This document shows, one piece after another, positions 3,421 to 49,262 of a stretch of DNA of 64,000 bases. A program made the position numbers and the translations under genes. The DNA comes from Polyangiaceae bacterium. Lineage in GTDB: Bacteria > Myxococcota_A > Polyangia > Polyangiales > Polyangiaceae. How positions within the stretch are numbered: the stretch's first letter is position 1; each line of letters starts with the position of its first letter. The DNA is taken from assembly GCA_016712345.1 (NCBI GenBank), contig JADJRH010000002.1, positions 200,466-264,465 of the forward strand, in the 5' to 3' direction. The notes under the pieces are model-generated. The model was not told the origin of the DNA, made no database searches, and was given only the letters and a program-made list of their open reading frames with translations.

Positions 3421-3513
3421 ACTGGGAAAAGACTAGAGCACCTGCCGATATTTCTCGGCTTTCTCAAGTCACTAATCTTCTGATTTTACTCACGATTCAA
3501 ACCAATTGGTGTT

Positions 3514-5552: not shown

Positions 5553-5735
5553 AAATGCGCGTGGGTGATTTTGGTGGGTAGACGACCCGCGAAGATTGTG
5601 CCCTTTTCATGATGGGCGCCTCGTTCTGGGGGCGTTCACGCTTTGTGGCGAGCCAGTCAACCGTTTCGCGTTGCGCGAAGGCCACCCAAGGGCAATGATG
5701 GGTAGGTTGCGGGGGATCTACCCATGGTTGAGGGG

Positions 5736-7772: not shown

Positions 7773-7890
7773 GGAGATTTTCTATATTTCGGGCTGCAAT
7801 GGATGTCAGAAACGTTGTTTGGAACCGCGTTCTGCGAGCCGATTGCAGCCCAACAAACAAAGAAACTCCGTGTTCCTCCGTGATTCCGTG
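7742..7890. repeat. Nested palindromic repeat element, copy A: CACGGAG x3-4 / T-rich / GGGCTGCAATGG / central hairpin / GATTGCAGCC / A-rich / CTCCGTG x3.
   Basis: Seen in sequence. A second copy with the same architecture lies at ~55146-55318. Confidence 0.7.
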
Positions 7891-7961
7891 TTGAAATGGA
7901 CGGTTCAGTTGGAGAAACGCACCAGGTTCTTGCCGGGTGGCGTCAGTTACCCAGAAGGCCC

Positions 7962-8669: not shown

Positions 8670-8681
8670 GGCCCGACCTTA

Positions 8682-9431: not shown

Positions 9432-9434
9432 GGA

Positions 9435-10514: not shown

Positions 10515-10728
10515 GGGTTTCCCTGTGCGTTGTGTGAGAGCGACTTGTTTGCGTGCCTCGTTACCACAGTGCGTCGTTTGGTGCGGTGGTTTGAGTGCGC
10601 AAAAAGTCTTTTTTTCAGGGCTCCGCGCGTCGGCGGAAGAGCAGCCGGTGATATAAGTGAACGTCATCGATCAACGCGTGGGCACTCCGCGCGGTGAGCA
10701 AAAAACTTAGAAGAAGGGTTCATCGGCG

Positions 10729-12582
10729 ATGCGGACCAAAATCATTCCGAGCGCACTGTTCCTGACCGCTCTCGCAGCGGTCGGATGCGGTGACGGCGGG
10801 GAGAGTTCCACGGGAGGAACCACCTCCACGACCCCGTCCAAACCACCCACCGTTGTCGATATTGTTGTCGACGCCAATCGCGATGGGAAACTCGATCCGG
10901 CCGATCCCGCCGATCAAGACAAAGAAAACGAATGGAGCGTCGACAGCGGCGCGTCGTTTTTGGCAAACCTCGATGACGACGACGCGGACAAGTTTCGCGA
11001 CGTAGACGACCAGATCATCAACGGGCCGGATGATGAACTCGACCTGGCGAAGATGCAGCTCGTCGCGTGGCCCGACGCTCCCGACGGTGCGCTTGGTGTA
11101 CTCCATATCGATCCGATGAGCGCCCAGAACATTCGCCTCTGGAAAAAGGGGCTCGACGGCGCTTGGTGGCTCGTCGGTGGCAACGTCGGTCCCTGCAACG
11201 AAGTGGATCCGGCGTGCACGGTGACACCCGACGTAACGTTTCCAATCGAAGAAGTGCGCGCGGGGCTCACGCTCGGGATCGAAGCGCGTTTCTTCCGTCG
11301 CTCACTTGCGCCTGAGGCGTGGACGGGCATTGTGCAGCTCGGCTATCAGGTAAACGACAAAGACGGTGCGCCGATCACCGACGACAACATTCCCGATGGG
11401 CTTGATCAGGCCAAAATTCGCGTTGCCCCGTGGATGTTGTTTGGCAACCTTTCTCCTTTTGATCGCGTTTGGTCCAACAACGTAATGCCGGCATTTGTGT
11501 CGGGTCTTTCAACGCTGTCGACGGAAGCGGGCGTTACCTACAAGAAGATCACCAACTGGCAGGATCACTGGACTCAAGACTATTTCCAAACGGGGTACAC
11601 AACGATCCCGGTTGAAAACGGCGCCGTTCAAGGCATGCGCATCGCCAACGCAAGGCCGTGGGGTCGCTGCGACTCGCCTTCGTGTTGGCCGATCAACTGG
11701 CTCAAAAAAGGGTATTTGTCGCCCGGAAACGGTGTGATCGAGATCTACAACAAGCCCAATACGGGTTCGACGTACGACTCGCATGGCAACCACGATCTGC
11801 TGCCTCCGTATGAAAACGGAGAATCAAAATATCCCTTTGGTCGCATCGCAATCGGCTCAGGTGTACTCAAAGAAACCAAAGATTTTTACGCTGCGCAGGA
11901 GGTTCAAGGCCCGCCGATCATCGTGAAAACGTCGTGGCTCTACGTGGGTCACATCGACGAAGTATTCAGTTATGTGCCCGCGAACACGCCGCGCGGGTGG
12001 AAGCTTTTGGTAGGTTCACCCAAGCTCGCAAAGTCCATGCTTGAGGCGGCTCAAGCGGCCGGACACGGCGCGGTGACCATGTTTAAAGGGCAAAAGTGGT
12101 ACACCGAAAATGGCAGTCTCATAGACGCCGAAGTTTCAATTGACGAGGTGCTCGCCAATCAAGATCTGCTTGCTGCGTCGCAAGAAGCGCAAGGCGAGAT
12201 CGACGACATGATTGCCCAACTAAAAGAAGAGGTGGGTCTGGCGGACGACGAGATCGTCGAAATGCCGTATCTGCTCCAAGACCTCTTTGGGCAGAAGGTC
12301 GCCTTTAACCCGGGCACGGCCAACATGCTTGTTGTGGCCGACCACTTGGGCATTCCCAAACCGTGGGGCCCCGTTATCGACGGTGCCGACATTTTCGAAA
12401 CCGATCTTGAAGAGCGCCTTGGAGCACCGGGCCAAAACCTCGGATCCGACGGCAACGGTCTTATCGTTCACTTCATCGACGACTGGGAGTGGTACCACGC
12501 GCTCGACGGTGAGGTGCATTGCGGCTCCAACGTGGATAGCGTGCCGCCCGCGGATCAAACTTGGTGGAAGGTGTTGAAATGA
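10729..12582 (+). CDS. Eukaryote-type protein-arginine deiminase (PADI-like) lipoprotein.
   Basis: Lipoprotein signal (LAAVGC). The C-terminal catalytic domain aligns block-by-block with human PAD4: KYPFGRIAIGSG, SWLYVGHIDEVFSYVPAN, ANMLVVADHLGIPKPWGPVIDG, and the terminal DGEVHCGSNV active-site Cys motif. The N-terminus has a WQDHWTQDYFQTGY block resembling PAD4's WMQDEMEIGY. Confidence 0.85.
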   Translation: MRTKIIPSALFLTALAAVGCGDGGESSTGGTTSTTPSKPPTVVDIVVDANRDGKLDPADPADQDKENEWSVDSGASFLANLDDDDADKFRDVDDQIINGPDDELDLAKMQLVAWPDAPDGALGVLHIDPMSAQNIRLWKKGLDGAWWLVGGNVGPCNEVDPACTVTPDVTFPIEEVRAGLTLGIEARFFRRSLAPEAWTGIVQLGYQVNDKDGAPITDDNIPDGLDQAKIRVAPWMLFGNLSPFDRVWSNNVMPAFVSGLSTLSTEAGVTYKKITNWQDHWTQDYFQTGYTTIPVENGAVQGMRIANARPWGRCDSPSCWPINWLKKGYLSPGNGVIEIYNKPNTGSTYDSHGNHDLLPPYENGESKYPFGRIAIGSGVLKETKDFYAAQEVQGPPIIVKTSWLYVGHIDEVFSYVPANTPRGWKLLVGSPKLAKSMLEAAQAAGHGAVTMFKGQKWYTENGSLIDAEVSIDEVLANQDLLAASQEAQGEIDDMIAQLKEEVGLADDEIVEMPYLLQDLFGQKVAFNPGTANMLVVADHLGIPKPWGPVIDGADIFETDLEERLGAPGQNLGSDGNGLIVHFIDDWEWYHALDGEVHCGSNVDSVPPADQTWWKVLK

Positions 12583-13511
12583 GCCGCAACAAAACGTCAC
12601 TTTGGGGTCTTGTGTTGGGAGCCGCCGTGGTTGCCCTTTCGGGTAGCGCGCGCGCCGACGGCATTGCACTCAGTGCGGCTGAACTTCCTTCACAAGTAAA
12701 GCAATCGCTCGCCAAAGATGTGGCGGCGTACAAAGCCGCGCACGCGGCCGATTTTAAGCCTGTGCGCGACGTGCAGGGCATTAAGCCCGATGTGTACAAA
12801 GCCTATCGAAACCCGCAGCCCGTTGCGGTGCTCGAGCTGAAACGCCTCGGTGCGGGCGCGCTCTTGCCCATGCTTGACGTGCTTGCTCTCGACGCCCCCG
12901 CGCTGACGTTGAGCGACAAAGAAAAAACAGCGTACATCGTCGGCCTGCTTGAAGCTTCGAGCGCGCTTCGCGATGCCCGCAGTGGGCCTGTGTACACAGC
13001 GATCTTTGAGGCGAAAAACAAGCCGAATGATGTGCTGCGTGCCGCGGCGGAGGCTCTCGGGCGCGTGTGCGGCGATGCCGAACTTGGCACCCTCAAGAAA
13101 CACACCGCCGCAGGTGATGCGTTGCGTACACATGCTATTCGCGGTCTGTCGCAGTGCCGTCGCAAAGAAGGTGTGGAGCACCTCGCAACACTTCTCGGCG
13201 CCGCATCCGATGCCGCTTCGGCTGAGCCCATCGCCGACGCTCTCGGGCTCGCGTCGTCGAGCTGGGCGTGGAAAGCCATGGGAGCCAAAAGCGCGGCGGC
13301 AGCCAAAGACGTTCAGCAAATTGCCGCGAAGGCGCTCATCACTTCGTTCGTGAAGCACAAAGACGCGCGCCCGGCGGCTCGAAAAGCCCTCAAGTTGGTT
13401 GAGTCTCCCGATGCGGTCACGCTCATCGCGGCGGCTCGAACAAGCGCCGACGCAGTCACACAGAGCGCGCTTGACGAACTCGCCAAAGCCGTCACCCCCG
13501 CTACCAAGTAG
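12579..13511 (+). CDS. Secreted alpha-helical (HEAT/ARM-like) repeat protein, translationally coupled to the PAD gene.
   Basis: Its ATG overlaps the PAD TGA (ATGA). It has a Sec signal (MSRNKTSLWGLVLGAAVVALSGSARA) and an Ala/Leu-rich helical repeat composition. Confidence 0.6.
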   Translation: MSRNKTSLWGLVLGAAVVALSGSARADGIALSAAELPSQVKQSLAKDVAAYKAAHAADFKPVRDVQGIKPDVYKAYRNPQPVAVLELKRLGAGALLPMLDVLALDAPALTLSDKEKTAYIVGLLEASSALRDARSGPVYTAIFEAKNKPNDVLRAAAEALGRVCGDAELGTLKKHTAAGDALRTHAIRGLSQCRRKEGVEHLATLLGAASDAASAEPIADALGLASSSWAWKAMGAKSAAAAKDVQQIAAKALITSFVKHKDARPAARKALKLVESPDAVTLIAAARTSADAVTQSALDELAKAVTPATK

Positions 13512-13525
13512 ATAACGGCCAATAG

Positions 13526-13553
13526 GCACAGCGCGTATTCTTTGCGCTGTGCT
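13526..13553. terminator. Hairpin (GCACAGCGC ... GCGCTGTGC, 9-bp stem) immediately after the 12579-13511 gene.
   Basis: Inverted repeat seen 15 nt past the stop. No U-tract. Confidence 0.35.
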
Positions 13554-13828
13554 CAGCCCCAATCCTGATCAGTTAAGACAAGAAAGCCTTCTCTCTGTGA
13601 GGTTTGGCGGCTCCTGCCGCCTGGTAGCTACCTGCCGACGGCCCCGCCGAATTCACGTTTTCGTCGCGGCTGCATTCGCAGGAAACACGTTATGGAGAAG
13701 GCTTTCGCGCCGCGCTTTTCGCTTTCTCGCTCGGCAGCGGGCAAGGGTGTCCGAAACGTCGCGACGACCCTGACTCCGGGCTTCGCTGAAACGTTTCGAC
13801 TGCTTAAGATCCGACCTATGAACCCGGA

Positions 13829-14830
13829 TTAGCGATCTTCGATCGTCATTGCGCTCTTGAGCGCGTCTTTGTTCGGCCGAACATCAAAGTTAAATCCAAT
13901 GTTCATTCTGCCCGCGTAATACGACTCCACGTCGCCGCGCAGCGGTGTTGTCACCGGGAACAAGAAACTCAGCGCCGGCTGAATGCGAGGCAGCATTAAT
14001 CGAATGCTCGGCGACACGGCAAATGCCGCTCGATTGTCGTCGTTGGCGAGTTCCTTTGTCACCTCGTAAACCTCCCACAACTCCACGCCGATACCGAGCC
14101 ACTCACTCAACCGGTAGCCCATGTAAAACGTGAGCCGCGCCGTGAAATTGGTAATTCGAGGATTGCTTCCCGACGGTGTACCCCCCGGGATTTCTTCGGG
14201 ACCGTTAAGGGAGATCGACCAATCAATGCCTTGTCGAAGCTGAAAAATAAGCCCTGAAACAACGTGCCGAATGTCGATCCACGGCCTAAACGTGAGCGTC
14301 AAACTGGAGAAACTCGCCAGATCCCACGGCTTCACCGTGCGCACTGTGCGCAGCACTTCGGTTTCAACAGGAGAAAGTGCGCGCGGCGTGGGGAGCACAA
14401 TGCCAAGCCCGCCGCCCGACGAAAGGCCTCGACTGGAGGACCACAAGCCTCGTCCGCTGATCTCAGGGTTTCCAAGCAAAAAAGCGGTGCCAACGCCGGG
14501 CAGAGCCGCCGCCGCAATATCGTTTGAAAGGCCTATAAACCACTGCCGCGGAACAATCGGATATTCGGCATCGGTGTGCATGAAGTACGCAAACGCATCA
14601 CCGGATCGGTCTTGATCTTTGGGCTGAATCACCGCGGCTGTCAGCTCAAAGTTAAACGTCAGATCGCGGTGAGCGAGCGCTGGCAACGTCGGCGGGGCAG
14701 GCGCATCCAACACACTTTTCAAGTCGTCCCCGGAGCCGTTGAGCGCCGACTGCGCAAGAACAGATTCTGCGCGGAGAACAACCAACAGAAACAAACCGGC
14801 CGAGAAAACCCGGCCCAACGTGGAAGTCAC
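13829..14830 (-). CDS. Hypothetical secreted/outer-membrane protein.
   Basis: Signal peptide and a beta-rich composition. Its start overlaps the rseP stop by 4 nt. Confidence 0.5.
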   Translation of the reverse strand: MTSTLGRVFSAGLFLLVVLRAESVLAQSALNGSGDDLKSVLDAPAPPTLPALAHRDLTFNFELTAAVIQPKDQDRSGDAFAYFMHTDAEYPIVPRQWFIGLSNDIAAAALPGVGTAFLLGNPEISGRGLWSSSRGLSSGGGLGIVLPTPRALSPVETEVLRTVRTVKPWDLASFSSLTLTFRPWIDIRHVVSGLIFQLRQGIDWSISLNGPEEIPGGTPSGSNPRITNFTARLTFYMGYRLSEWLGIGVELWEVYEVTKELANDDNRAAFAVSPSIRLMLPRIQPALSFLFPVTTPLRGDVESYYAGRMNIGFNFDVRPNKDALKSAMTIEDR

Positions 14831-15951
14831 TTCTTTCCGAGAATGTCGTTGAACACGGTCACATAGCCCATCAACCCGAGCAGCATGATGAGCCCAACAC
14901 CGTGAATGACAGCTTCAATACGGGGGTTGGCGCGACGCCGCGTTGCGGCTTCGTACGTGAGAAAAATGAGCCGACCGCCGTCGAGAGCCGGAAATGGAAT
15001 GAGATTAAACGCTCCCAAATAGGCCGACAAAGCAGCCAAAAACTCGATGAAATCGGCCCAACCACCTTCAGCCGCGGCGGCCGTTTGTTCAACCATCGCT
15101 TTGGGACCGCCAAGCTCTTTTACCGAGCCTTCGTGTACCCATTTTTTCAGATTGATAAACAGCTCGGCAACCACCATTGCCGGTTGCTCAAACGCCTGGA
15201 TCGCAGCCTCTTTCATGGTCATCGGGATGCGCTCTCGAAAGAGCCCAACACCGATTCGACCTTTGCCTTCTTCGTTTGCGGGGGTGACCGTGATGGTGAC
15301 GCGCTCCCCTTTTCGCATCACGTCCACGGAGATTTTTTCTGCGGGGTGTTTCGAGATGTTTTCGGCCATTTTTGACCACGTTGAAACCTCAACACCCGCA
15401 ACGTTCACCACTTGATCGCCGTCTTTGAACCCCGCGAGCATGGCAGGTTTTCCAGGCAGAACACCGATGATCGTTGACTCGCGCTCCACATGGCGCCCGA
15501 CTGCTGCGTACACACCAAAAAACACCAGCGCAGCAAACACGTAGTTGGCAAGCGGCCCCGCAAAGATCGCCGCGATCCGGCCTGTCACGCTCGCGTTTGC
15601 GTAACTGCCTTTGTCCTTTGGATCCACCTCTTCGAGTGGATTCATCCCGGCGATTTGCACGTACGCGAGGAATGGAATGGCCGCGACCTGAAACACTGTC
15701 GGCCCATGTTTTTCGGGCACGTGTTTCCACAGCCGCAGTCTCACTTTGCCCGCCGCCGTTGTGAACCAGTAATGGCCGTCTTCGGGCACAATCTTGAAGA
15801 TCGTTGGGCCGAACCCGATCGAGAACTTGATCACGCGCATGCCGTAGGCGCGGGCGGCGAAGAAGTGGCCGCCTTCGTGCACGATCATGAGCAAGGCGAG
15901 GCCGAGAGCACCGATGAGGTACTTGAACCAAGGGGGCATCGAGCGGAGCAT
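14827..15951 (-). CDS. rseP: RIP (site-2) zinc metalloprotease RseP.
   Basis: HEGGHF (HExxH) in TM1, a PDZ region, and a C-terminal LDGG motif. Confidence 0.9.
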   Translation of the reverse strand: MLRSMPPWFKYLIGALGLALLMIVHEGGHFFAARAYGMRVIKFSIGFGPTIFKIVPEDGHYWFTTAAGKVRLRLWKHVPEKHGPTVFQVAAIPFLAYVQIAGMNPLEEVDPKDKGSYANASVTGRIAAIFAGPLANYVFAALVFFGVYAAVGRHVERESTIIGVLPGKPAMLAGFKDGDQVVNVAGVEVSTWSKMAENISKHPAEKISVDVMRKGERVTITVTPANEEGKGRIGVGLFRERIPMTMKEAAIQAFEQPAMVVAELFINLKKWVHEGSVKELGGPKAMVEQTAAAAEGGWADFIEFLAALSAYLGAFNLIPFPALDGGRLIFLTYEAATRRRANPRIEAVIHGVGLIMLLGLMGYVTVFNDILGKK

Positions 15952-15983
15952 AGCATCGCCGCCCCGGCGTGGTTGTGTTTGCT

Positions 15984-16637
15984 CTACAGCATGAAACTTA
16001 CGCCGACGGTCACGAACGGAATGCCGAGGCGCATGGTGAGCGTGATCTTGTCGCGGAAGTGGAAGCGCCCACCCACCTCGAACATCGGCTCAACGAAGAT
16101 GGCGTCGTAGCCGCGATCCCCTACGAAAAACCCGTTACTGTGCGGCACAAATCCAACTTCGGCGAACACGCTCCACTTCTTGTGCAAAAAGAAGTTCCAC
16201 TGTGCGCCGATGGGAAACCAAAACGAATATTCGTCGGGATAACAATATCCGCAGTTGGTAATATCGAGCCCAAACGTGATGCCGATGGTGTTGTTGAGCT
16301 TGGGAATCACCGGGTCGACAATTTCAATCGTGGCGCGAAAACCAACGCCCGCGTTGAAGTAGTAGCGATTGAGATCGCGCCCGTATCGAAACGTATTTCC
16401 CCACGGTGACAGTGTCCCGTGCGGTTCCAACTCAACCCGGTAGTCGGGGTGGTCACTTGGATTGCGAATGATCATTTGCGCGGCGGCTTCACTCGCCGAG
16501 AACAACGCAACACCGGCGGCGGCCGACCCAAGCAGTACAGCGACTCGACGTTGGTAGGTTCGCATGAGCAATGTTCCTATCGCGACATCGCGGCGCAAAG
16601 CAACCGCGATGGTTGCCCTGATAGTGCCGGCGCGCAT
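15984..16637 (-). CDS. Hypothetical outer-membrane beta-barrel-like protein.
   Basis: Signal peptide, alternating aromatic/Gly beta-strand pattern, C-terminal F. Confidence 0.45.
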   Translation of the reverse strand: MRAGTIRATIAVALRRDVAIGTLLMRTYQRRVAVLLGSAAAGVALFSASEAAAQMIIRNPSDHPDYRVELEPHGTLSPWGNTFRYGRDLNRYYFNAGVGFRATIEIVDPVIPKLNNTIGITFGLDITNCGYCYPDEYSFWFPIGAQWNFFLHKKWSVFAEVGFVPHSNGFFVGDRGYDAIFVEPMFEVGGRFHFRDKITLTMRLGIPFVTVGVSFML

Positions 16638-16793
16638 GATTGAAAGGTCGCGAATTTGGGAGGCTTAGTTATTTGCGCACGAAAAGCGCGCGACATGCAC
16701 AGTGCTTGAACCGGGCGGCGCTACGTCTGCCCACGCAACCGCAATGTGTACACCATCTGCGAGGCGACAACGGCGGGACTTGGCTCTGTGATC

Positions 16794-17993
16794 TTATTCA
16801 ACGCGGGCACACCCATCTTGCTCAAATGCCAAAATCCGCGCCCGACCAACTATCCCGCCCTGAACTTGCCGAAAACGTTGCTCATACACCCGTTCATACA
16901 GCTTGGCTTGGCCGTCGCCTTTGAGCGGGATTGCCTTGGGAATGATCCCCGCGATTCGAAACGGGCATACCCACGTTTTTGGATTTTCTGTATTGGAAAA
17001 AACAATGCGGGCCAAAAACCCTATTTCAGTGGCCAAGTGCTCTCGATGTGTACGCATTAGAAAATTACCAATGCTATAAAAAATGGGCTTGCCTTTGTAC
17101 ACTTCAATCCCCTGCGAAAGATGGGGGTGGTGCCCAATCACCGCATCGGCCCCGGCGTCAATCGCCGCGTGGTGTAGGTCAATCGCGCGCTGAAGAGGCA
17201 CGCTCACATATTCTTCCCCTCCATGGTAACTTACCACCACGGGGGCTCCGTTGCCGGCTGTTTTAGCTGCCTTTACTGCCGAGCTGACTGCCTCTTTACC
17301 GGCCTCCGCCACGTAATCTTTGGCTGCGTGAACCTTGAGTGCGCCTTGGTTCCATATATCTGTAAACGCCAAAATGCCCAGCTTAAACCCGTTTACTTCT
17401 ACCCATGCGGGCGAATAAGCCTGCTCCCGATTTCTACCCGCTCCGGCATATTTCACCCCCGCCCGCTCCAGATTTTCAAGCGTTTCTAAAAAGGCCCGCT
17501 GCCCATAATCCCACATGTGATTGTTCGCGAGCGACACCACACCCACCTTGCCAAGTTGCAGCGCCCTCGCTCCACCGGGCGGACCTGTAAACACCAGCTT
17601 TTGGGTAGGTGATTGAGTTTCCCCTTTTTGGTCAGACAATTGACTTTCTAAATTGACAAATCTCACGTCCGCCGTGGCCAGGAGTTCTGCCACCGACTCA
17701 AACGGGTTAAAGTCGGGATTTTTTAAAATCTCCTGCCCAATCGATCTACCCATGCAAACGTCGCCGCCGAAAATAACAGAAGCCGAGGAGGCGGCCGGCG
17801 GTGCAAGGTTGCTTTCAGCGGTTGAGGAAGCCGTGGGTACAACCGCAGCGCTCGTTTCTCCACGTTGGCCATGGGTAGACAAGGCGCTCGACGACAACGT
17901 CTCAGACGTTTCATCCGTGGCAGATGAGCCCGAAGAACACCCCAGAACAAGGGCCACACCGACGGTCCAAATTCTCCAACCGGTGAAACGCAT
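16794..17993 (-). CDS. CapA/PgsA-family metallophosphoesterase (poly-gamma-glutamate/capsule synthesis-like) lipoprotein.
   Basis: Motifs IFGGDVCMGR, LANNHMWDYG and VIGHHPHLSQG are present. Lipobox LVLGC. Confidence 0.7.
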   Translation of the reverse strand: MRFTGWRIWTVGVALVLGCSSGSSATDETSETLSSSALSTHGQRGETSAAVVPTASSTAESNLAPPAASSASVIFGGDVCMGRSIGQEILKNPDFNPFESVAELLATADVRFVNLESQLSDQKGETQSPTQKLVFTGPPGGARALQLGKVGVVSLANNHMWDYGQRAFLETLENLERAGVKYAGAGRNREQAYSPAWVEVNGFKLGILAFTDIWNQGALKVHAAKDYVAEAGKEAVSSAVKAAKTAGNGAPVVVSYHGGEEYVSVPLQRAIDLHHAAIDAGADAVIGHHPHLSQGIEVYKGKPIFYSIGNFLMRTHREHLATEIGFLARIVFSNTENPKTWVCPFRIAGIIPKAIPLKGDGQAKLYERVYEQRFRQVQGGIVGRARILAFEQDGCARVE

Positions 17994-18047
17994 ACCCCAA
18001 CTCTACCACGAAATCCGTTCTGCGCCCTACGGCGTTTAACCCCGCCG

Positions 18048-19010
18048 TTACTTTGGCTCTTCGGTGGGGGCGCACGTGGAAACGCCGGCGCCAACGATGT
18101 CAAACCCCACGTTGGTATTGATGGGGGTGGTGATTTGGGAGGTGGGCTCGTATTTGTAAATGCCTGTGCCGCTCATGATGTAAAACGAACCTCCCCAAAA
18201 GGCGAAGGCCCACGACAGGCCGCTTGGAATTTGAGTGAGGTCAGAATAGGTAATGACCTTTGCGTCGGCCTTGTTGATCTCCGCGAGCCGAATGGGGACA
18301 TCTTGAAAGTACCCAAACAGCCGCGCGTCGCCCGTGCCTGTCAGTTCTGCCGCTTTGCCCGCCAAAACGTCGTAGTCGGCAATAGGAGTAAGCGTCAGGG
18401 TGGTTTGATCGATGGTTGCGAGGCCGGACGCTCCGGGTTGGTTATACGCACCCGAAACGTACAACGTTTCCATGTCAGACCCCGCCGCGTCGGAAACAAA
18501 TCCCATTCCAAACGTGCAAAATCCGGACTGGCAGGGTAGAAACCCGGTGGGTGTGCAGTTGAGCGTTTTGGTATCTACGTGGTAGATTACGCCGTTTGCA
18601 AAGAGTACCCACGCTCTTCCTTTTCTATCCACCGACATAGAAAACGTGGTGTTGAATTCTTCTCCCGGGCAGTTGAGTGTGCCCAGCACCGTGAGATCCT
18701 GAGTTTGCGGAGCAAAGCGAGCAAACTGCTTATCCTGACCCAATATGTACACACTGCCTTTGGTGTCGTTGTCGCAGTCGCCCGGGCCCGCCGCGCCGGT
18801 TCCAGAACTTACCGACAGGTCAATTCCACCGTCGCCGCCTTTTCCGGTGCTCATACTTCCCCCCAACCCGCCCGTGGGGAGACTTCCCGCCGAACCGCCG
18901 CTCCCGCCGACAGTTGGATCACCGGTCGCCGCCGTGCGCCCCGCGCTGCACGAAAGCGCACCAAAAACAGCCACAACAGTGCATACCGCCCGCAGATTAA
19001 GGTGAAGCAT
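18048..19010 (-). CDS. Hypothetical lipoprotein.
   Basis: Signal with lipobox (ALSCS) and a Gly/Ser-rich linker. No domain recognised. Confidence 0.5.
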   Translation of the reverse strand: MLHLNLRAVCTVVAVFGALSCSAGRTAATGDPTVGGSGGSAGSLPTGGLGGSMSTGKGGDGGIDLSVSSGTGAAGPGDCDNDTKGSVYILGQDKQFARFAPQTQDLTVLGTLNCPGEEFNTTFSMSVDRKGRAWVLFANGVIYHVDTKTLNCTPTGFLPCQSGFCTFGMGFVSDAAGSDMETLYVSGAYNQPGASGLATIDQTTLTLTPIADYDVLAGKAAELTGTGDARLFGYFQDVPIRLAEINKADAKVITYSDLTQIPSGLSWAFAFWGGSFYIMSGTGIYKYEPTSQITTPINTNVGFDIVGAGVSTCAPTEEPK

Positions 19011-19173
19011 GGGGGGATGTTAATCCCAAAAACAAGCGATTGGAAATGGAGTATTTCTGCTGACTACACTCCTGGGTAACTGCGTAACAAATAAAGCACA
19101 CACCCCGCATGCGAGGATCTGCACTGAACATCCGACACGGTTAACAACATCTCCAAAACGAAAGGATGCGCCA

Positions 19174-22100
19174 ATGAACGTGCGAACGTCGTTTCCTTTA
19201 GGCAGCAATCAACGCGCGGCGAACAAGCCACCCTTGCGGCTGACTTGGTTCGCGCCGTGGGTGTTTCTGATCATCCTTTCAATCACACAAGGCGCCTGCA
19301 CCTGCATCACAAGCGAGGCGCCGCCCCCGCGCGAAATCGTCGCATGTGTACCCCAACACGAAACGCGCGCTACCAAACTTCCAACCTCCCGCGCAAGTGA
19401 AACCGCCGCCGCCGGTAGCCTGCAAGGGACATTCTCTGTCACCCCTACCGGTGAAGCTTCTTTTGTCGTTCCTATACCCACGCCACCGGGTAGAGCCGGG
19501 ATAGAGCCACGGGTAGCCCTCGCCTATAACAGCGCCGAGGGCGACGGTGTAGCGGGTCAAGGCTTTTCGCTCTCGGGTTCATCGGCGATCACGCGTTGCC
19601 CTAAGAACATGGCCCAAGATGGGGAGATCTGCGCCGTCCGGTATGACGCCGAGGATAAACTCTGTTTGGATGGTCAACCGCTTGTACAAGTCGCCGAAGA
19701 AACCGGACAACTGGAATACCGGACCTTACCCGACACCTTTGTGAAAGTGGTAGGTCATGCGCCGATCGCAGGCGTTCCGCAATGGTTTGAAGTGTTCGCT
19801 CCGAATGGCGTGATCACCGAGTATGGTAGAAGCGCCTCAACAAGACCGCGCGGACCCAACAATTCTACCCGCGCTTGGTTAGCCGCCAAAACCCACGACG
19901 GCCGCGGCAATGCGTTGATCTACGGGTATTGTTTCGCCAATGCCGAAGAGTACACCGCTGAGTACGCATTGGATGAAATTCGGTATACCCAATTTGACGG
20001 GACACCCGCCCTTGAACCGACACGGGCCGTCAAGTTTGTGTACGCGCAACGCAAGCCCGACCAAACGAGGCTTTCTTTTTCGCATGGAATGGTCGTTCAA
20101 CGCTCTTTACAACTCAACGAGATCCAAATGGTCGGCCCCGGTGAAGAATTGGTCACATGGGTGGACCTGGAGTACACAAAGAGTGAAGCCACCGGCCGCA
20201 CCTTACTCACAAAAATGGAAGAATGCGCTGCGGATGGAGTCTGTAAACCCGTTACGCTTTTTTCATACTCCACCCATGAAAAAGGCTTTATCGATCAATC
20301 TACCGAACTCGATTCGCCCACGTCCCGCAAGGCAAGCCCAATGCTTGTGGACATGGACGGCGATGGGCTTGACGATGTGTTAATCCCTGACACGCATCCC
20401 GCCCTTTCTACCCCTGCAAACCCGATCACAGAATGGCGGCTTTTCCACAATGGCACCTTGCCCGGTGAAAGTGTCACCTTTTCAGATCTGACCATTCCTT
20501 ACGTTCAAGATGACGTGTTTGTGGCCGATCCCAGCGGTCCCGCCGACCCTACCCAACTACAGCCCGAACTTGGAACGGTGCTTGATTACAACCAAGACGG
20601 CCGAAAAGATATCCTTCTCCATGACATCTACCAACAGGGGGCAACATGGAAGATTTTGATCGCCAAACCCGCCCCTCAAGCCGGACCCAACACCCCCACG
20701 TTTGAGATGGTAGATACAGGGATCGCTCGCCCCTTTGGCATCGGCGCCCAACCTGTACCACCTGCGTTGTCTACCAAAAACGGCTCCATGCACTTGGCCG
20801 ACGTCGACGGCAATCGCGTGGCCGACTTGATCCAATGCACCGATCACAGTGACTCGCTCACCGGTGACCCTTCTAAACCTGAATGGAAGGTGCACCGATG
20901 GTTGCCCGCGCACGGGGGTATACCTCTTGGATTTGACCCGGAAGGAGAAGTGATCGAAGCGCTCGAATTATACCGATGCGACGTCGACCTGAAAACGGTT
21001 GACATCGACGGAGACGGAAAAACAAATCTTCTTGTCGTGCCGCTTGAAGTGGCAGGTGATGGATCTGAAATTCAGGGCGTAAATTACGAAGCGCTTTCCC
21101 GCAACGAAAACGGCACGTGGGAAATTCGCGAAACAAACCTAACCATTCCCGCCCCAGGTGGACGCGTTGTATTTCTCGATGTGAACGGGGATGGTCTACC
21201 CGATGCAGTAGAGTCAGGTTTTTCGAACGGCGGGCTTTATACACTCCTCAACACCGGCAACGGCTTTGCACCCTCGCAGCTCAGTTTGGATGGTGGCGGT
21301 TACGGCGGGCAGGATGCGCTTTTCCGCTTTGCAACCCCAATCGACGCCAACGGAGACGGCAGGCAAGATCTTTTGGTGCCCATGTTCGCCGATGGACTCG
21401 GCGCCAGTGGTGAACCGCCCGAGTGGGTGTTTCTCATCGCACAACCGGGCATCCAATCGACGGGCACGTTCACCATCGAACCATCGGGCATTCCCTTTAA
21501 GCCGCTTTTGGGTGAAGCGGTCACTCTCGCCGATCCTCACGGGCCGCGCATCGGCGATCTGAACGGCGATGGAGCTTCGGATGTTGCCATTTGGTTGAGT
21601 GGCAAGCTCCACATTTTCGAAAATCAAGCGCGCGATCAAGACCTGTTGATCGGTGTACACCAAGGAACCAACCCGCATGATCCTACCGATCCTGAATATG
21701 TGCCCGACGTGGCCATTTCGTATGGCCATCTGACAGACTCTTCTATCACGACCAACACCGATCCAGATGCTTTGTCCAATGAGAGCGCGCTCTACCTTTC
21801 GCAATGGGACAAGGCCAATGGGTGCACCTACCCGCGACGGTGCAGCGTTGGCGCGCGCCGCGTTGTTTCGGAGTATCAGACGTTCGACGGGGTAGATGCT
21901 GGGCGCCGGTATAGCTTGCGGTACCGCGATGGACGGATATTCGTTGCACAGGGCTTTTTTGGGGTTCGGTGCGCGGTTTCTGACCGACCTCGACACCGGA
22001 GCGATCACCGCTGACTTTTTTGATAACCAGTCGTTTGACGCCACGTTTCAGACCTACCCATTTGCAAAGGTCCGATCGGCCCAATGGCGATCTACACCCG

Positions 22101-25100
22101 GTTGGGAAGGGTTGCCCGATCCTCAAAAGGTAGAACTGTCGTTTCTAAACACGACACGCCTTGTCGTGCCCACGAACAACAGCAAAACCTATTTCACGCT
22201 CACCACAGAAAACCGTTTGCGCCGAGCGCAAGGCGAATTTGACGCTACGGCGCAAGGGTCGAGTTTGCTGGAGTACACCCGAAGCGTTGAAAATGGTGCG
22301 GCAAACGTCCCCATCTTGCGCGACACAACCGCCAAGGTCACCAACTTCGACGACGTTGGAAATGTGCTTTCTGAAACGTCCGCGACGGTAGATGTCAACC
22401 TGACAACCACCATCGAGCGTACGGTAAAAAACGACGTTGATACCTGGAATCTTGGCCAAGTCACGCAGCAAAAAGAGTGCAGCGCGGCGAATGGGTTGAC
22501 GCAGTGTCGATCCATCCAACGATCGTTTACCCCTTACGGGGAGGTTGCGGGCGAAACGGTACAGGATGAAGCCGATCCCACAACGCGGATTGAGGTCAGT
22601 TACGGGCGCGACCATCATGGAAATGTGACCTCCCTCAGCGCGAAAGATCCCAAAGGCGCCGAACGCACCTCCACGATTACGTACGATTCAACTGGGCTCT
22701 ACCCTCGCGAACATACCAACCCGGCCGGCCATGTCACACGCACCGAGTTTGATCCACGGCTTGGCGTCGTGACCCGAATCACTGACGCAAATGGGCTTGT
22801 GACTGAGCATCAGGTAGATGGTTTCGGGCGCCTGACATTGAAAAAGCGCCCCGATGGTACAAGTACAAGTTTCACCATTACTCGCACGAGAGACGGGGCA
22901 CACAACCAGAACGCCTGGCGCATTCGCGAACGGACGATCGAAACAGGAGGGCAGGACGAAGAGATCGAACGCGACGCTTTCGGTCGAGTGGTTCAACATT
23001 GGTGGTATGGTCCGACACCGGAAGGTCAAACCAACGCGCCGCGGATCACGCAACGATTCGAATATGATCGGTTGACGGGTAGAGTCGCCCGAAGGTCAAT
23101 CCCCATGCGCGAGGATGCCGCGCCCAACAAAGTCGAATGGGATGAGTTTGTCACCGACGGGTTAGGCCGCGAGGTCAAACGCACCACGGCTTTCGGCGCC
23201 ACCACGGAAACGGAGTTTGATGGACTGACCATCAAGACGACCGATCCGCTTGGAAACGTGAGCATCGCAGAAAACGACGCCTTGGGTAGAAAGATCGCCG
23301 TCACCGACGCCGCCAACGGCGTTACGGTGTACACCTACGGGCCCTTTGGAAAGTTAACCAAAGTCACCGGACCCGACGGTGCAACCACGCTCACCACATT
23401 CGATGCGATGGGTAGACCGGTTGAAACGGTAGACCCCGACAAGGGAGGCACTCAACAAACCTACAACGCCTTTGGTGAGCTGGTTTCATTGGTAGACGCC
23501 CTCGGAAATGAAACCACCTTTGAACGTGATCCGCTCGGTCGAGTGACGAAGCGCCTCGACGATTTGGGCGCTACCACCGAAATCACAACGTGGACATTTG
23601 ACACGGCCCCGAACGGAAAAGGGAAGATCCACCATGTAAAGAGTATCGATGCAGAAAAAACGTACACCTATGATAAATTGGGAAGGGTAGAAAGTGTCAG
23701 CCTGGAGGTGACGGGGAACGGGCCCGCGATAACAGGAAAGATCGGTTATGATCTCTTCGGCCGCGTCGAAACCCTGACCTACCCAACGGCAAAGAGCAGC
23801 GTACCTTTTGCAGTCGTCCAAGACTACGACGCGCACGGGTTTACCCGTAAGGTGCGCGACCGAAACATCGATCTCACCTATTGGCAGTTGACCGGGGTGG
23901 ACGACGCCGGCAGGTTTGCGCAGGAACAAATGGGCAATGGAGTTTCTACTACCCATCGAACCTATTTCGCCGCGCAGCAAAGGCTAAGAAACATCACCAC
24001 AGAAAACGCGGCCGGTTTGGTGCAAAGTTTGGAGTTTGAATGGGATGCTCGCCTAAACCTGAAAAGCCGCACCGATGATTTGCAGCCACAACACACCACC
24101 GAACGATTCAGGTACGACGCCCTTGAGCGGCTAACGTGCTCGTATTTCTCGACGCAAGAAGATGTTTCGGCGCCTTGCGATTGGAGTTACCAATACGCGC
24201 CGAACGGCAACTTGACATACAAGTCCGACGTGGGCACGCTGGAGTATAACGATCCTACCCATCCTCACGGTGCCACCGCGGCCGGAGGGGCAGCATACCA
24301 ATACGACGCCACCGGCAACCAAACGGCTCGCCCCGTGGGGGTGAAGGTTGCGTACACCGCGTTTGATCTACCCAGAACGATCACCCAACCGAGCGGAGTG
24401 ATCTCGTTTGGATATGACGGCGACCAAAAACGTGTACGCAAGACAACCGCAACGCACGAAACGCTTTATTTCGCCGACCTGTATGAACGGATGAAAGACG
24501 CCGCGAACGCGCTCACCGAGCGATTTTATGTGCGCTCGCCTGAACGCGTGATCGCGATTGTCACCCGCGGAGGCAATCAACCGGGCACAATGTATGTGCA
24601 CGCCGACCACTTGGGATCGGTGGATGTACTCACCGATGCCGATGGGAAGGTCACCGAGCGGCGCAGTTACGACGCCTTTGGCCAAAGGCGAAATCCCGAG
24701 TGGGGCGCCCCAATACCCGCGAGCTTTCCTGACTCGACATCGCTTGGTTATACCGGCCACGAAGATGATGGAGAGATCGGTTTAGTCAACATGAAAGGAC
24801 GGATGTTTGATCCCAAGTTGGGTAGGTTTTTGAGCACCGACCCGATTGTGCAGGATTGGACATTTAGCCAAGCGTGGAACCCTTACAGCTACGTTTTCAA
24901 TAATCCGTTGACCTATACCGATCCAAGCGGATTTGACGGCGAACCCAAGCGTGAGCCGGGCGTGGTGTACATGCCGGAGGCAAATATCAAGGTGCCAGTC
25001 CCGACGAACGGGACCGCGCCACCCAAGGAGGACAAGCCCAAAGAAGAGAAGAAACACGGCGTGGGTGAAGGCGAAAACGATGTCAACACCACCGGGTTGA

Positions 25101-25774
25101 TCACCCCATTGGTTGACGCGGACGAAGAAGGGGAAGACGATCAACCGTGGTATCACCATCCCATCGCGCATGGGATCATCGGATTTGGCGCGGGGCTTGG
25201 ACTTGGCTATGTCCCCTTTGCTGGAATAACGGAGGAAATTCTAGAAAAAGCGCACGTACTGAATCCAGTCTCCCCGACGTATCACTATGCCAAGTCGGCG
25301 GGCATGAGCATTGGAGGGCTGATCGCCATGCTCCAGGGCTTTAATGAAATTGCGGGAGCTGTGATGCTCGCTCCCGAAATCGGTCCAGGCGGAACCGTGG
25401 CCATTTCTAACATGGCATTGGCCCAAGTGTCAGGTGGTGCACTGAATGTATACGCCGGCACGCAAGCGATGATGTCCGGGCCGAACGGACGGCAGAGCGC
25501 TGGGCCGTCCGCCACTCGCGGTGAAACTCCGGCCGCGCGTGCGGGCCGCGAAGCTCACAAGAATTGGAATCCAGGAAACGGTTTTGAAAAGGAGTTTCGA
25601 TTGCCGAGCGGTAAACGACCGGATGCGGTAAACTTCGAAACGAAAGAGGTGTTGGAATTGAAACCAAACAACCCGGAGGCAATTCGAAAAGGCGAAGCTC
25701 AACTCCGGGAATATGTTGATGAGTTGAATAAGCATTTTGGCGGTGGATTCACCGGTCGCGTAGTTACGTATTAA
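19174..25774 (+). CDS. Rhs/YD-repeat polymorphic toxin (~2200 aa) with a C-terminal PD-(D/E)xK nuclease-like tip. The reading frame is broken by a 1-nt indel in a T6 run at 21955-21960.
   Basis: Track ORFs 19174..22014 and 21896..25774 overlap. Removing one T from GGGCTTTTTTGGGG joins ...RIFVAQGF to LGFGARFLTDLD... The N-terminus is SpvB/TcC-like with FG-GAP-type Ca-binding repeats (DMDGDGLDDV, DVDGNRVADL, DIDGDGKTNL, DVNGDGLPDA, DANGDGRQDL, DLNGDGASDV). These are followed by many YD repeats and an RHS core (GRMFDPKLGRFLSTDPI). The tip carries ...RPDAVNFETKEVLELK... (PD..ExK). Confidence 0.85.
24448..24975. repeat. Rhs core segment duplicated in inverted orientation at 4925-5436.
   Basis: See the paired repeat feature. 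The boundaries are where the main and orphan sequences diverge. Confidence 0.75.
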
Positions 25775-25784
25775 AGGAGGCCCC

Positions 25785-26243
25785 GTGAAATCGGATGCTG
25801 TCAGCATGGCCCTTTCAGATCTTGTGGTCGCCGCTGGGTTCGTGAGGAAGCGAGACACATGGTATCGCGCGACCGAGGATCTCATTCAAGTGCTGAATGT
25901 TCAGAAGTCCCGGTATGGTCAACAATACTATTTGAATCTTGGGATATGGCTAAAGCCCTTGGGAGAGGTGCAGTTTCCGAAAGAGAATGTATGCCATGTG
26001 CGCATTAGGGCCCGGCAACTCGACGAGGCGACCCGCGCCGAGTTTGAAAAATGTCTGGACTTGGACAGTGGTATCACCCCAGAAGAACGCGAAAACCAGA
26101 TCCGCCGATTGGTTGACGACGTTGTCCTGCCGTTTTTCGCAAGATGCGAGTCCATTGCGCAAATCCGACAAGTGTACAACTCGGGTGTGCTGAAACGAGC
26201 CGCCGTTTTGAGTACCGCACAAGAGTTTTTGACGGGTCAATGA
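25785..26243 (+). CDS. Putative immunity protein for the Rhs PD-(D/E)xK tip.
   Basis: GTG start 5 nt after a perfect SD (AAGGAGG) that overlaps the Rhs stop. Local GC is lower (~52%) than the surrounding sequence. 152 aa, no named family recognised. Confidence 0.6.
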   Translation: MKSDAVSMALSDLVVAAGFVRKRDTWYRATEDLIQVLNVQKSRYGQQYYLNLGIWLKPLGEVQFPKENVCHVRIRARQLDEATRAEFEKCLDLDSGITPEERENQIRRLVDDVVLPFFARCESIAQIRQVYNSGVLKRAAVLSTAQEFLTGQ

Positions 26244-28239: not shown

Positions 28240-29295
28240 ATGTTGTCGCTCACCCCCACTGAACTGGTAGAACTGCTCCTGTCGCTGCCGGCTGAGCGCA
28301 CACCGTTTATTTGGGGGCCCCCCGGCATTGGCAAAAGCGCCCTCGTGCGTGAGGCGGCAGACCTGTTGGAGCTTCCGTGTGTTACCCTTTTGGGTACCCA
28401 AATCGCACCTGAAGATCTCATCGGCGTGCCCCGCATTCGCAACATGGGTGAAAGTTACGTCACCGAGTTTTGTCCACCGCGCGCCATCCTTCGGACAGAG
28501 CCGTTTTTGCTTTTTATCGATGAGCTGAACAGCGCGGTTCCAGATGTTCAAAAAGCGTTCTACTCCCTTATTCTCGACAGGAGATTGGGGGATTACGTTC
28601 TACCCACCGGCTCGCGTGTTGTGGCCGCCGGCAACCGGGTAGAAGATCGCGCGCTTGTAAGGCCCATGGCCACGGCGCTTTCCAATCGCATGGTGCATGT
28701 GGCGCTCGCGCCCGACGCAAATGCCTGGCTTTCGTGGGGTGCTACCAACGGTGTACACGCGCTCGTGCTTGCGTTTGTTCGCGCCCGGCCCGACCGTTTG
28801 TTTGAGCCTCCCCCCACCGATTCTACCCCTGCCTACCCAACTCCGCGCGCATGGCACATGCTTTCCGACGCGTTATTTGTGGTGGGTGAACACCTGTGGG
28901 CCGCGCTTGCCGCAGGATCGGTGGGTGACCGCGCCGGGGCTGAGTTTTCGGCGTTTGCCAAACGCGCACTGGAGGCCCCCTCGCTTGAATCGCTGGCGGC
29001 CGGAAAAGCCTCGGTTCCTCGCGATCCAGAACTCATTTATTTTCTCGGTGCAAGTTGCATTGCCAAACTCGCATCTTCCCATCCTTCCGATGGTGAACTC
29101 TGTGCCAAAGTGGTTTCTTTACTGGGGGCAGCCTCCAAAGAAGTAGCCGTTTGGACGGTGGACACAGCGCTGGGTAGAAAGGACAAAACGGTGGCCCTCA
29201 CCGCGTTTGAAAACTACGTCCGCACCAGCGGATCGCAGGTGCTTGTTGACGTGATTCGGCTTGGTCGCTACGCGCGTGATCCGGCGCCGCGATGA
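28240..29295 (+). CDS. MoxR/CbbQ/NorQ-type AAA+ ATPase.
   Basis: Walker A (GPPGIGKS), Walker B (LLFIDELN) and sensor (AAGN) motifs are present. The ~350 aa size is typical of the Q-type partners of VWA proteins. Confidence 0.85.
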   Translation: MLSLTPTELVELLLSLPAERTPFIWGPPGIGKSALVREAADLLELPCVTLLGTQIAPEDLIGVPRIRNMGESYVTEFCPPRAILRTEPFLLFIDELNSAVPDVQKAFYSLILDRRLGDYVLPTGSRVVAAGNRVEDRALVRPMATALSNRMVHVALAPDANAWLSWGATNGVHALVLAFVRARPDRLFEPPPTDSTPAYPTPRAWHMLSDALFVVGEHLWAALAAGSVGDRAGAEFSAFAKRALEAPSLESLAAGKASVPRDPELIYFLGASCIAKLASSHPSDGELCAKVVSLLGAASKEVAVWTVDTALGRKDKTVALTAFENYVRTSGSQVLVDVIRLGRYARDPAPR

Positions 29296-49255: not shown

Positions 49256-49262
49256 GGTACAC

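Follow-up and report, generated by a model that had tools for sequence, protein, structure and literature searches.

Exchange of C-terminal toxin/immunity cassettes is how Rhs and related polymorphic toxins diversify, and Salmonella provides one experimentally dissected case. In Salmonella Typhimurium LT2, the main and orphan genes share 522 bp at 95% identity and recombine under selection (Koskiniemi et al. 2014, PMC3967940). Recombination in this core stretch produces a chimeric full-length gene with the orphan toxin, and rhsI-main is deleted unless the locus has been duplicated beforehand (PMC3967940). Without duplication the cell would be open to suicide, since its resident immunity gene is lost in the crossover. 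The model in which rhs genes evolve by C-terminal displacement (Jackson et al. 2009, PMC2935791) and the RHS-core homologous recombination put forward for replacement of the TcC hypervariable region (Song et al. 2021, PMC7861908) both hold that new tips join the scaffold via the hyperconserved core end and that old tips persist as core-end-plus-tip fragments. Inversion is mentioned in neither text. A literature search for inversion-mediated switching of Rhs or other polymorphic toxins found none, and the key papers contain no word beginning with "inver".

Shufflons invert frequently, by means of a dedicated tyrosine recombinase (Rci in R64) and sfx sites that are short (~19 bp). In Campylobacter fetus, the sap inversion reportedly works through conserved segments of ~600 bp and oppositely oriented cassettes and is largely recA-dependent (as said to be described by Dworkin & Blaser 1997). 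It is said to be frequent and experimentally shown, and to pair one expression unit anew with an alternative cassette. This inversion is also mentioned in PMC5634654.

The locus described here lies in a window of 64 kb (the whole stretch of DNA that was analysed, 64,000 nucleotides) from a Polyangiaceae bacterium. It is a main/orphan Rhs system of the ordinary kind, unusual in that its layout is inverted and dispersed, and it extends the main/orphan architecture to the SpvB/FG-GAP/RHS ("BC-type") toxins of Polyangiaceae (Myxococcota). Its features are as follows.

3514 to 4071, minus strand: Imm11 immunity-family gene (Imm11 E 2e-10); its ATG overlaps the orphan toxin stop codon by 4 nt.
4068 to 4923, minus strand: orphan tip, with an O-type linker, a Gly-rich (glycine-zipper-like) segment and an AHH (HNH/EndoVII superfamily) nuclease domain.
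4924 to 5436, minus strand: left arm of the inverted repeat, a 171-codon core end; the 5'-truncated fragment that heads the orphan cassette.
5437 to 5610, minus strand: upstream leader of the orphan, inside the invertible segment, with an ATG at 5610 and a T5 run at 5551-5555.
5437 to 24444, no strand: segment between the arms, 19,008 bp, the part that would invert.
19174 to 25774, plus strand: main polymorphic toxin gene, in two ORFs (19174-22014 and 21896-25774) with a 1-nt frameshift between them.
21955 to 21960, plus strand: T6 run at the frame change of the main gene, where the TcB-type motif GRGFLGF is split between two frames.
24445 to 24957, plus strand: right arm of the inverted repeat, the last 171 codons of the main toxin's Rhs/YD core (TATHETLYF...DPSGFDGEPKREP), with DPKLGRF and DPSGF motifs.
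24958 to 25774, plus strand: main tip, with an M-type linker, a divergent Gly-rich segment and a Tox-REase-9 (PD-(D/E)xK fold) toxin domain.
25785 to 26243, plus strand: DUF4304 gene (DUF4304 E 6e-22), 10 nt 3' of the main toxin stop codon.

The two arms form the sole long inverted pair found by the repeat search. They are 513 nt long and 19,008 nt apart, and match without gaps at 458 of 513 positions (89.3% DNA identity) and at 162 of 171 residues (95%). No other repeat in the whole 64-kb window, inverted pairs included, exceeds 37 nt. Because a tblastn search of one gene against the other locus gave E = 6e-129, a chance origin of the repeat is excluded. The inverted pair that the original prediction reported is thus real, and its Rhs core label is apt, since each arm is the 3' end of an Rhs core. 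The prediction had placed the copies at 24448-24975 and 5436-4925 with ~88% identity; this was broadly accurate, except that the start was set 3 nt late and the end ~18 nt too far. The 5' edge (24445/5436) is razor sharp, with identity falling to background over a single base. At the 3' edge, identity fades right behind the codons for ...DPSGFDGEPKREP, which mark the core/tip boundary. Both arms terminate in the core border motif ...NNPLTYTDPSGFDGEPKREP, right after which the similarity collapses. Weaker homology runs through the tips beyond the arms, giving 55% protein identity over 452 aa, core included. The border motif in both arms is the variant DPSGF, where a PxxxxDPxGL-type motif (DPxGL) is expected.

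The main gene encodes, in order, a signal/lipoprotein-like N-terminus, SpvB, TcdB_midN, an FG-GAP propeller, an RHS-repeat shell, the core end, the linker, the Gly-rich segment and Tox-REase-9. Pfam placed SpvB, FG-GAP and TcdB_midN on the upstream ORF, and RHS_repeat (PF05593, E 6e-35) on ORF 21896-25774; homologues bear a TEN_YD-shell annotation. The PD-(D/E)xK tip foreseen on the main Rhs gene is indeed a restriction-endonuclease-fold Tox-REase-9 domain (E 6e-26), and it sits on the shell-bearing gene. The delivery scaffold, called full-length in the original prediction, is not an intact Rhs protein of 1,292 aa; it is an SpvB/FG-GAP/RHS gene of ~2,199 aa, frameshifted as assembled. The DUF4304 gene is presumed, by position only, to be the cognate immunity gene of the main toxin.

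Busby et al. 2013 reportedly described the BC subunits of Tc toxins, in which TcB and TcC form a cocoon. The main toxin resembles Tc BC in that a single polypeptide holds SpvB, TcdB_midN, the FG-GAP propeller, the RHS shell, a core end with aspartyl-protease motifs and a variable toxin. No TcA-like ORF was found in the 64-kb window, where the largest other ORF encodes a Ser/Thr kinase. Unlike the insecticidal Tc toxins, this locus combines nuclease tips with immunity-family genes, as interbacterial polymorphic toxins typically do. The scaffold, a Sec-signal-bearing SpvB/FG-GAP/RHS fusion in a myxobacterium, also differs from the Rhs proteins of Salmonella LT2, which are T6SS PAAR/VgrG-linked.

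The two ORFs of the main gene appear to be one gene of ~2,199 aa broken by a 1-nt frameshift as assembled. Deletion of one T from the T6 run yields a single ORF of 2,199 aa. The closest complete homologues have 2,140-2,235 aa and read straight through this position, the homologue alignment with the first ORF ends at residue ~931, at the T6 run, and the homologue P0162 spans the repaired junction at 50% identity. In a survey of homopolymers, only one of 284 runs, the T6 run of the main gene, clearly splits a large gene. A systematic homopolymer error was considered for the frameshifts at both T runs and, given this count, is no more than a possible cause. If the frameshift is real, a tip swap would affect the phenotype only after restoration of the frame.

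Assemblies often break or are mis-joined at Rhs cores, and the homopolymer frameshift indicates that the sequence is not free of errors. Contig mis-joining at a repeated Rhs core might account for the inverted copy or for the inversion itself. However, 55 of 513 positions differ between the arms, the differences follow codon structure, and each arm leads into a tip and an immunity gene unique to it, so that the arms are two distinct loci and not a collapsed or duplicated repeat; homopolymer runs that split a large gene are, in addition, as rare as given above. We consider such an artefact extremely unlikely.

The left copy reads as a 5'-truncated orphan, consisting of a core end, a tip and an immunity gene, without a shell. 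A tblastn search found no shell sequence in the window outside the main gene, and the upstream neighbours of the orphan are the 174-nt leader and then an unrelated IgGFc_binding gene. The predicted orphan tip with its immunity gene is borne out as an AHH nuclease tip (Pfam, E 3e-17) with an Imm11 gene on a 5'-truncated core. The Pfam matches give two candidate toxin/immunity pairs, Tox-REase-9 with DUF4304 (adjacent) and AHH with Imm11 (overlapping). The GC content of the Imm11 gene is 48.9% versus 57.4% for the window.

The orphan could be expressed as a gene in its own right and play no part in recombination. As such it would encode a short protein, made up of its own leader, a core-end plug with autoproteolysis motifs and the AHH toxin, and would act with Imm11 as a toxin–antitoxin-like or separately exported module. 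Removal of one T from the T5 run brings the ATG at 5610 and a signal-peptide-like hydrophobic stretch into frame and gives an orphan ORF of 513 aa that starts MKRAQSSRVVYPPKSPTRILGGLATLLGAALVSD. The overlap of the Imm11 start with the toxin stop suggests translational coupling. The core fragment of the orphan has not decayed, as shown by its very low dN/dS (0.046) and by a count of private amino-acid changes that is the same in both arms; this fits recent orphaning as well as a translated orphan. In Salmonella, internal promoters drive the expression of orphan Rhs-CT modules, which act as TA modules (PMC7043789). However, the ATG is out of frame as assembled, and the only in-frame start available is the TTG at 5552. 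A promoter/terminator scan of 3300-8000 gave fewer matches than shuffled sequences and is uninformative; the empty upstream region counts against the stand-alone gene, in a test that is weak for a myxobacterium. To our knowledge of Rhs/TcBC structures, a 171-residue core end that lacks the shell cannot form an encapsulating cocoon. Independent expression is also compatible with rare crossover. We regard a purely stand-alone role as unlikely.

The reading that we favour, and hold to be probable, is that the repeat is the conserved Rhs core end, that the orphan is a reserve cassette, and that exchange between the two is a rare, unprogrammed event of the RecA type. The arms would owe their similarity to common descent and strong purifying selection on the core protein, and not to ongoing homogenisation. 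The orphan would be a reserve of toxin and immunity, of which the Imm11 gene could already protect the cell. Its toxin would be mobilised only if a rare crossover of the RecA type, within the 513 bp of homology, joined it to the scaffold. As the two copies sit in opposite orientation on a single replicon, such a crossover would necessarily invert the 19-kb segment. Both immunity genes would be spared, and the event could be undone. The timescale would be evolutionary and dependent on selection, as for the main and orphan rhs genes of Salmonella, and not that of a programmed switch driven by a recombinase.

The geometry of this event was correctly anticipated in the original prediction. With a crossover between the arms, 5437-24444 would be inverted, AHH/Imm11 would come to lie behind the scaffold and REase-9/DUF4304 would be left orphaned; no gene would be lost and, as had been proposed, the event would be reversible. 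The locus resembles that of Salmonella LT2 in combining a full-length Rhs gene with a 5'-truncated orphan that has a core end (522 bp in LT2 and 513 bp here), a different tip and its own immunity gene. The LT2 orphan, however, is adjacent, in direct orientation and 95% identical, whereas the orphan here is inverted, 19 kb away and 89% identical. It lies 19,008 bp from the main gene, on its 5' side, and not directly downstream in the same orientation. A crossover would thus invert and not delete, and both immunity genes would be kept. The arrangement also departs from both displacement models, in which the displaced tips lie just downstream and share the orientation of the gene, or sit between direct core repeats; this cassette is upstream, inverted and beyond housekeeping genes. 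Recombination was demonstrated in Salmonella LT2, whereas here it is inferred from sequence. An inverted orphan would lift the constraint of prior duplication, since nothing is lost in an inversion and the change can be reversed. If such inversions were shown to occur and to be selected, they would represent a second simple route to re-arm a toxin scaffold, and dispersed inverted orphans would be worth cataloguing.

The divergence of the arms bears on how often they could recombine. Mismatches at codon positions 1, 2 and 3 number 7, 6 and 42, with dS 0.555 and dN 0.026. Patchy repeat identity had been named in advance as evidence against exchange; the tests for patchiness or conversion tracts were not significant. 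The longest perfect tract between the arms, 41 nt, equals the expectation for random placement (P = 0.33), and no significantly mismatch-poor window was found in the arms (P = 0.07). The arms show no near-identity or homogenisation; the mismatch distribution is indistinguishable from random. They are old, protein-constrained copies without conversion tracts. Because a dS of 0.56 is accompanied by randomly spread mismatches, frequent exchange is disfavoured. Given what RecA requires of minimal efficiently processed segments and in homeologous recombination, 89% identity, tracts of at most 41 nt and a mismatch-repair gene predict a low rate. The window carries a MutL gene.

A programmed, reversible switch of tips would predict that the 19 kb flips often, in the style of a shufflon or of Campylobacter fetus sap, so that a mixed population deploys either REase-9 or AHH and keeps both immunities. 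The geometry is exactly right for it, and inversion retains both immunity genes. A hybrid core should work, as the arms are 95% identical in protein, and they share six perfect tracts of at least 25 nt. The association of scaffold and cassette is also swapped in a sister metagenome-assembled genome (MAG). However, repeated crossovers should leave conversion tracts, and none are seen. No integrase, invertase or transposase was found by Pfam, in the ORFs at 920-2045, 2233-3467 and 5736-19010, or among the large ORFs (220 aa or longer) between 26 and 54 kb. No short crossover sites bound the segment; its sole bounding inverted repeat is the 513-bp coding homology at 89%. The segment holds fourteen kb of unrelated housekeeping genes, including an IgGFc_binding-domain gene, a Glu/Leu dehydrogenase, PAD, an M50 peptidase, PGA_cap and other ordinary chromosomal genes, and also the promoter-proximal 5.3 kb of the main toxin gene. 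The scaffold is frameshifted as assembled, and the main Rhs-orphan papers checked do not mention inversion. A programmed switch is, in our judgement, very improbable.

The comparison with a shufflon made in the original prediction consequently fails as to manner: there is neither a recombinase gene nor a set of short crossover sites, and the diverged arms argue against frequent exchange. In concept, the locus is like the R64 shufflon, as DNA inversion would bring alternative C-terminal segments behind a constant N-terminal gene. It is unlike R64 in its lack of a recombinase gene and in its "sites", which are 513 bp of diverged coding homology. The nearest mechanistic analogue of the proposed event is C. 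fetus sap, with inverted conserved segments, here of 513 bp. The sap segments, however, are at the 5' end, nearly identical and flank a compact invertible promoter segment, whereas the repeats here are at the 3' core end, 11% diverged and 19 kb apart. The lack of conversion tracts, the lack of a nearby recombinase gene and the presence of MutL together suggest a substrate for rare RecA-mediated exchange and not a shufflon.

The closest relative, the MAG IPK82, has two further cassettes, P0001 (IPK82_27755) and P0186 (IPK82_22435). The core is 90-96% identical among the four cassettes (main, orphan, P0001 and P0186). The linkers fall into pairs, with 85% identity for main/P0001, 85% for orphan/P0186 and 42-45% for the cross pairs. 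The Gly-rich segments of orphan and P0186 are 96% identical, and the toxin domains differ (REase-9, AHH and two LHH). Relative to the window, the association of scaffold and cassette is swapped in IPK82, with the breakpoint at the 3' edge of the arm: the shell-bearing gene carries the O-type (orphan-type) module and the orphan-like gene has the M-type linker. As in the displacement model, the window orphan thus carries a module found on a shell-bearing gene in a sister MAG. The pattern suggests that cassette exchange at the core/tip boundary has happened in this lineage. It could equally stem from horizontal import of a cassette (C-terminal displacement) and not from intrachromosomal inversion. 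P0186 lacks main residues 1-751 and 946-1292 and may be a paralogue of the main gene, not an orthologue, which is a caveat on the swap as evidence of exchange.

The inverted, dispersed placement of the orphan might even be no accident. A single RecA crossover that flips 19 kb would then serve as a non-destructive, reversible exchange of tips, in which the outgoing tip gains the signal-peptide leader of the orphan, both immunity genes are kept and the sister MAG represents the other state of the switch. We find this idea distinctly doubtful.

A genome collection was scanned with the mid-segment M50 peptidase as the query, chosen so that the 10-kb flanks reach both arms. The only relative found, L001 (84% protein identity), shares ~2.7 kb of synteny with the window and has no Rhs at that position, so it gives no information on orientation. 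An Rfam scan of the window matched no family. Metagenome scans with the post-core protein of the orphan and with a degenerate DNA pattern for ADGKVTERRSYDAFG returned no match. The suggestion that orphans are the rule in this clade, as most homologues are short, was rejected; many of the short matches stem from short or low-coverage contigs or from split genes. Among the relatives' loci L005, L006 and L007 there is no inverted orphan, and each core end is joined to shell sequence. L007 holds two copies of the core at one locus, in direct orientation. The locus also documents modular shuffling at three junctions: core-linker, linker-Gly-rich and Gly-rich-toxin.

A repeat search of positions 1–32,000 returned one inverted pair, 4924–5436 and 24445–24957, with arms of 513 nt that are 89% complementary and 19,008 nt apart. 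In ungapped register the arms match at 458 of 513 positions (89.3%). The same search over the whole 64-kb window gave no other repeat longer than 37 nt. The inverted repeat is real, and the original prediction, which had given its coordinates and an identity of about 88%, was essentially right. The 5' edge is sharp, with identity at background immediately upstream of 24445/5436. At the 3' edge, identity fades right past the codons for DPSGFDGEPKREP. Beyond the arms, weaker homology runs through the toxin tips: in a tblastn comparison, the main protein matches the orphan locus over 452 aa at 55% identity (E 6e-129). The features concerned are as follows.

3514–4071, reverse strand: Imm11-family gene, whose ATG overlaps the stop codon of the orphan toxin
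4068–5552, reverse strand: orphan ORF headed by the left arm, AHH nuclease (E 3e-17)
5437–24444: interval genes, including Glu/Leu dehydrogenase, PAD-family deiminase, M50 peptidase and PGA_cap
19174–22014, forward strand: upstream ORF with SpvB, TcdB_midN and FG-GAP domains
21896–25774, forward strand: ORF with the right arm, RHS_repeat (E 6e-35) and Tox-REase-9 (E 6e-26)
25785–26243, forward strand: DUF4304 gene, starting 10 nt past the preceding ORF

The upstream ORF and the Rhs ORF share 119 nt in different frames, and the TcB-type motif GRGFLGF, read in both frames, is divided between them at a T6 run (21955–21960). In an exhaustive search, the closest complete relatives of the upstream ORF were single proteins of 2,140–2,235 aa, whose alignment with it ends at query residue ~931, the T run. 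Removal of one T from this run gives a single ORF of 2,199 aa, and a homologous protein of 2,224 aa (P0162) aligns unbroken over the repaired junction. Hence the scaffold is a single SpvB/FG-GAP/RHS "BC-type" toxin gene, frameshifted as assembled. The "full-length Rhs" scaffold of the original prediction is thus broken in the assembly, and the ORF upstream belongs to the same ~2,199-aa gene, with a signal/lipoprotein-like N-terminus. Of the 284 homopolymer runs in the window that reach 5 nt or more, only the T6 run clearly splits a large gene, so the frameshift may be real rather than a sign of poor assembly. True inactivation, a slippage-prone site and an isolated assembly error are the options.

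By its defining features, the locus is an Rhs main/orphan system. It has the RHS shell, the hyperconserved core end beside a variable toxin, an adjoining immunity-family gene and a 5'-truncated orphan; its orientation and distance differ from the usual layout. The domain order also resembles that of Tc BC subunits, but TcA-like genes are absent from the 64-kb window, as are T6SS genes.

The main gene runs rightward into the right arm and the orphan leftward from the left arm, so that both tips lie outside the segment. The interval holds ordinary chromosomal genes and the 5'-most 5.3 kb of the toxin gene. Reciprocal crossing-over between the two arms would invert 5437–24444. The scaffold would then lead through a hybrid core into the AHH tip and Imm11, and the orphan leader and IgGFc_binding gene would come before the REase-9 tip and DUF4304. 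Nothing would be deleted, and a second crossover would return the original order. The predicted reversible tip exchange follows from the coordinates alone; its attractive property is that both immunity genes would be kept.

The nearest mechanistic analogue of the proposed event is the sap locus of Campylobacter fetus, in which recA-dependent inversion occurs between conserved segments of oppositely oriented cassettes. Those segments are nearly identical and switching is frequent, whereas the arms here are 11% diverged. The comparison with a shufflon did not hold: a recombinase and short crossover sites were looked for near the arms and none was found, nor was any integrase, invertase or transposase present among the ORFs scanned flanking either side of the arms. 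In Salmonella LT2, main and orphan lie in direct orientation with 522 bp in common (95%), and a crossover keeps rhsI-main only if duplication comes first (PMC3967940). Here, in contrast, the arms are inverted and no gene would be lost. Inversion is not mentioned in the principal Rhs-orphan literature examined.

Mismatches between the arms fall at codon positions 1, 2 and 3 in the ratio 7/6/42, and 162 of 171 residues are identical in the encoded proteins. The Nei–Gojobori dS is 0.555 and dN is 0.026 (dN/dS 0.046). No perfect tract exceeds 41 nt, the length expected when the same mismatches are placed at random (P = 0.33), and the 120-nt stretch with the fewest mismatches does not reach significance (P = 0.07). 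These two tests gave no trace of recent gene conversion. Because of the high dS, low dN/dS and randomly placed mismatches, the arms are taken to be long-diverged copies whose likeness is maintained by selection at the protein level. Perfect tracts of 25 nt or more number six, enough for initiation when judged by the minimal processing segments of RecA. A divergence of 11% in a mismatch-repair-proficient background should lower the recombination rate by orders of magnitude. The same principle has been stated for TcC (PMC7861908). A MutL gene lies within the window.

No shell sequence was found 5' of the orphan core fragment by tblastn and domain scan; a 174-nt leader is followed by an unrelated IgGFc_binding-domain gene. 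As assembled, the only in-frame start is TTG at 5552. An ATG at 5610 (reverse strand), followed by signal-peptide-like sequence, is out of frame; removal of one T from a T5 run (5551–5555) joins it to the orphan in a 513-aa ORF. This offset is of the same +1 T kind as that of the main gene. Orphan modules elsewhere can be internally expressed as toxin–antitoxin pairs, with no need for rearrangement (PMC7043789), and this is a live alternative here, favored by the possible leader and the low dN/dS of the arms. The GC content of the putative immunity genes (48.9% for 3514–4071, 52.3% for 25785–26243; window 57.4%) is consistent with horizontally circulating cassettes. Overall, the orphan is probably a normal reserve Rhs cassette that is unusual in its inverted and dispersed placement, and that rare homologous recombination could bring into use. 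A reversible switch is an unlikely reading, and a programmed or frequent one is not supported.

Homologues assign the window to Polyangiaceae, Myxococcota. A single MAG (locus-tag prefix IPK82) supplies the nearest relatives of the two arms and the shell: the shell-bearing P0186 (IPK82_22435; 1,099 aa, shell 90% identical) and, on another contig, the orphan-like P0001 (466 aa). We aligned both with the window main and orphan proteins. All pairs are 90–96% identical in the core. In the linker, main/P0001 and orphan/P0186 are each 85% identical and cross pairs 42–45%; in the Gly-rich segment, orphan/P0186 reach 96% and the window main 33–36% against all others. The four toxin domains differ (REase-9, AHH and two LHH). 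The window-orphan module thus sits on a shell-bearing gene in the sister genome, with the linker association reversed too, and the breakpoint coincides exactly with the end of the window repeat. P0001 is a mosaic of a linker like that of the window main and an orphan-like Gly-rich segment. The alignment shows exchange of cassettes within the lineage, at the core end and two further junctions. The route need not have been inversion, since the same pattern would result if a foreign cassette had been brought in (C-terminal displacement, PMC2935791). P0186 begins at a position matching main residue 752 and may be a paralogue, because main residues 1–751 and 946–1292 are absent. Its scaffold also looks truncated or deleted, through locus decay or MAG assembly problems.

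Nearly all Polyangiaceae relatives (P0002–P0018 and others) share two segments between core end and toxin domain (24958–25400 and 4400–4922 in the window): a "DV.TTG ... PW..P" linker and a ~110-aa glycine-zipper-like hydrophobic stretch with a conserved terminal motif, NAWMS in the window orphan and its closest relatives. Both serve as further conserved junctions for module shuffling, and possibly as a membrane-entry domain.

Within the interval, a 617-aa ORF (10729–12582, forward strand) matches PF03068, the protein-arginine deiminase family, strongly and at full length (E 5e-77); the family is best known from animals, and the enzyme is hence unusual on a bacterial chromosome. An apparent operon at 28240–33244 (forward strand) encodes a MoxR-type AAA ATPase, a DUF2201 metallopeptidase/VWA protein and a further product of 847 aa that carries the shoulder and repeat domains of the major vault protein (MVP_shoulder E 6e-30). 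The MutL and sigma-70 gene pair of the window (47251–51173) recurs in another Polyangiaceae MAG (GCA_016715885.1, locus L005, 964–12091), ~5 kb or less from an Rhs fragment; the placement of Rhs loci with respect to this pair thus varies among relatives. An intergenic imperfect palindrome of ~140 nt occurs in two copies ~80% identical (7742–7888 and 55145–55290), with CACGGAG repeats in one arm, CTCCGTG in the other and an inner stem of GGGCTGCAATGG/CGATTGCAGCC. It matched no Rfam family. For the copy at 7742–7888 the folding energy is −65 kcal/mol (z = −6.8 relative to shuffles), and the element may be REP/MITE-like or a structured RNA.
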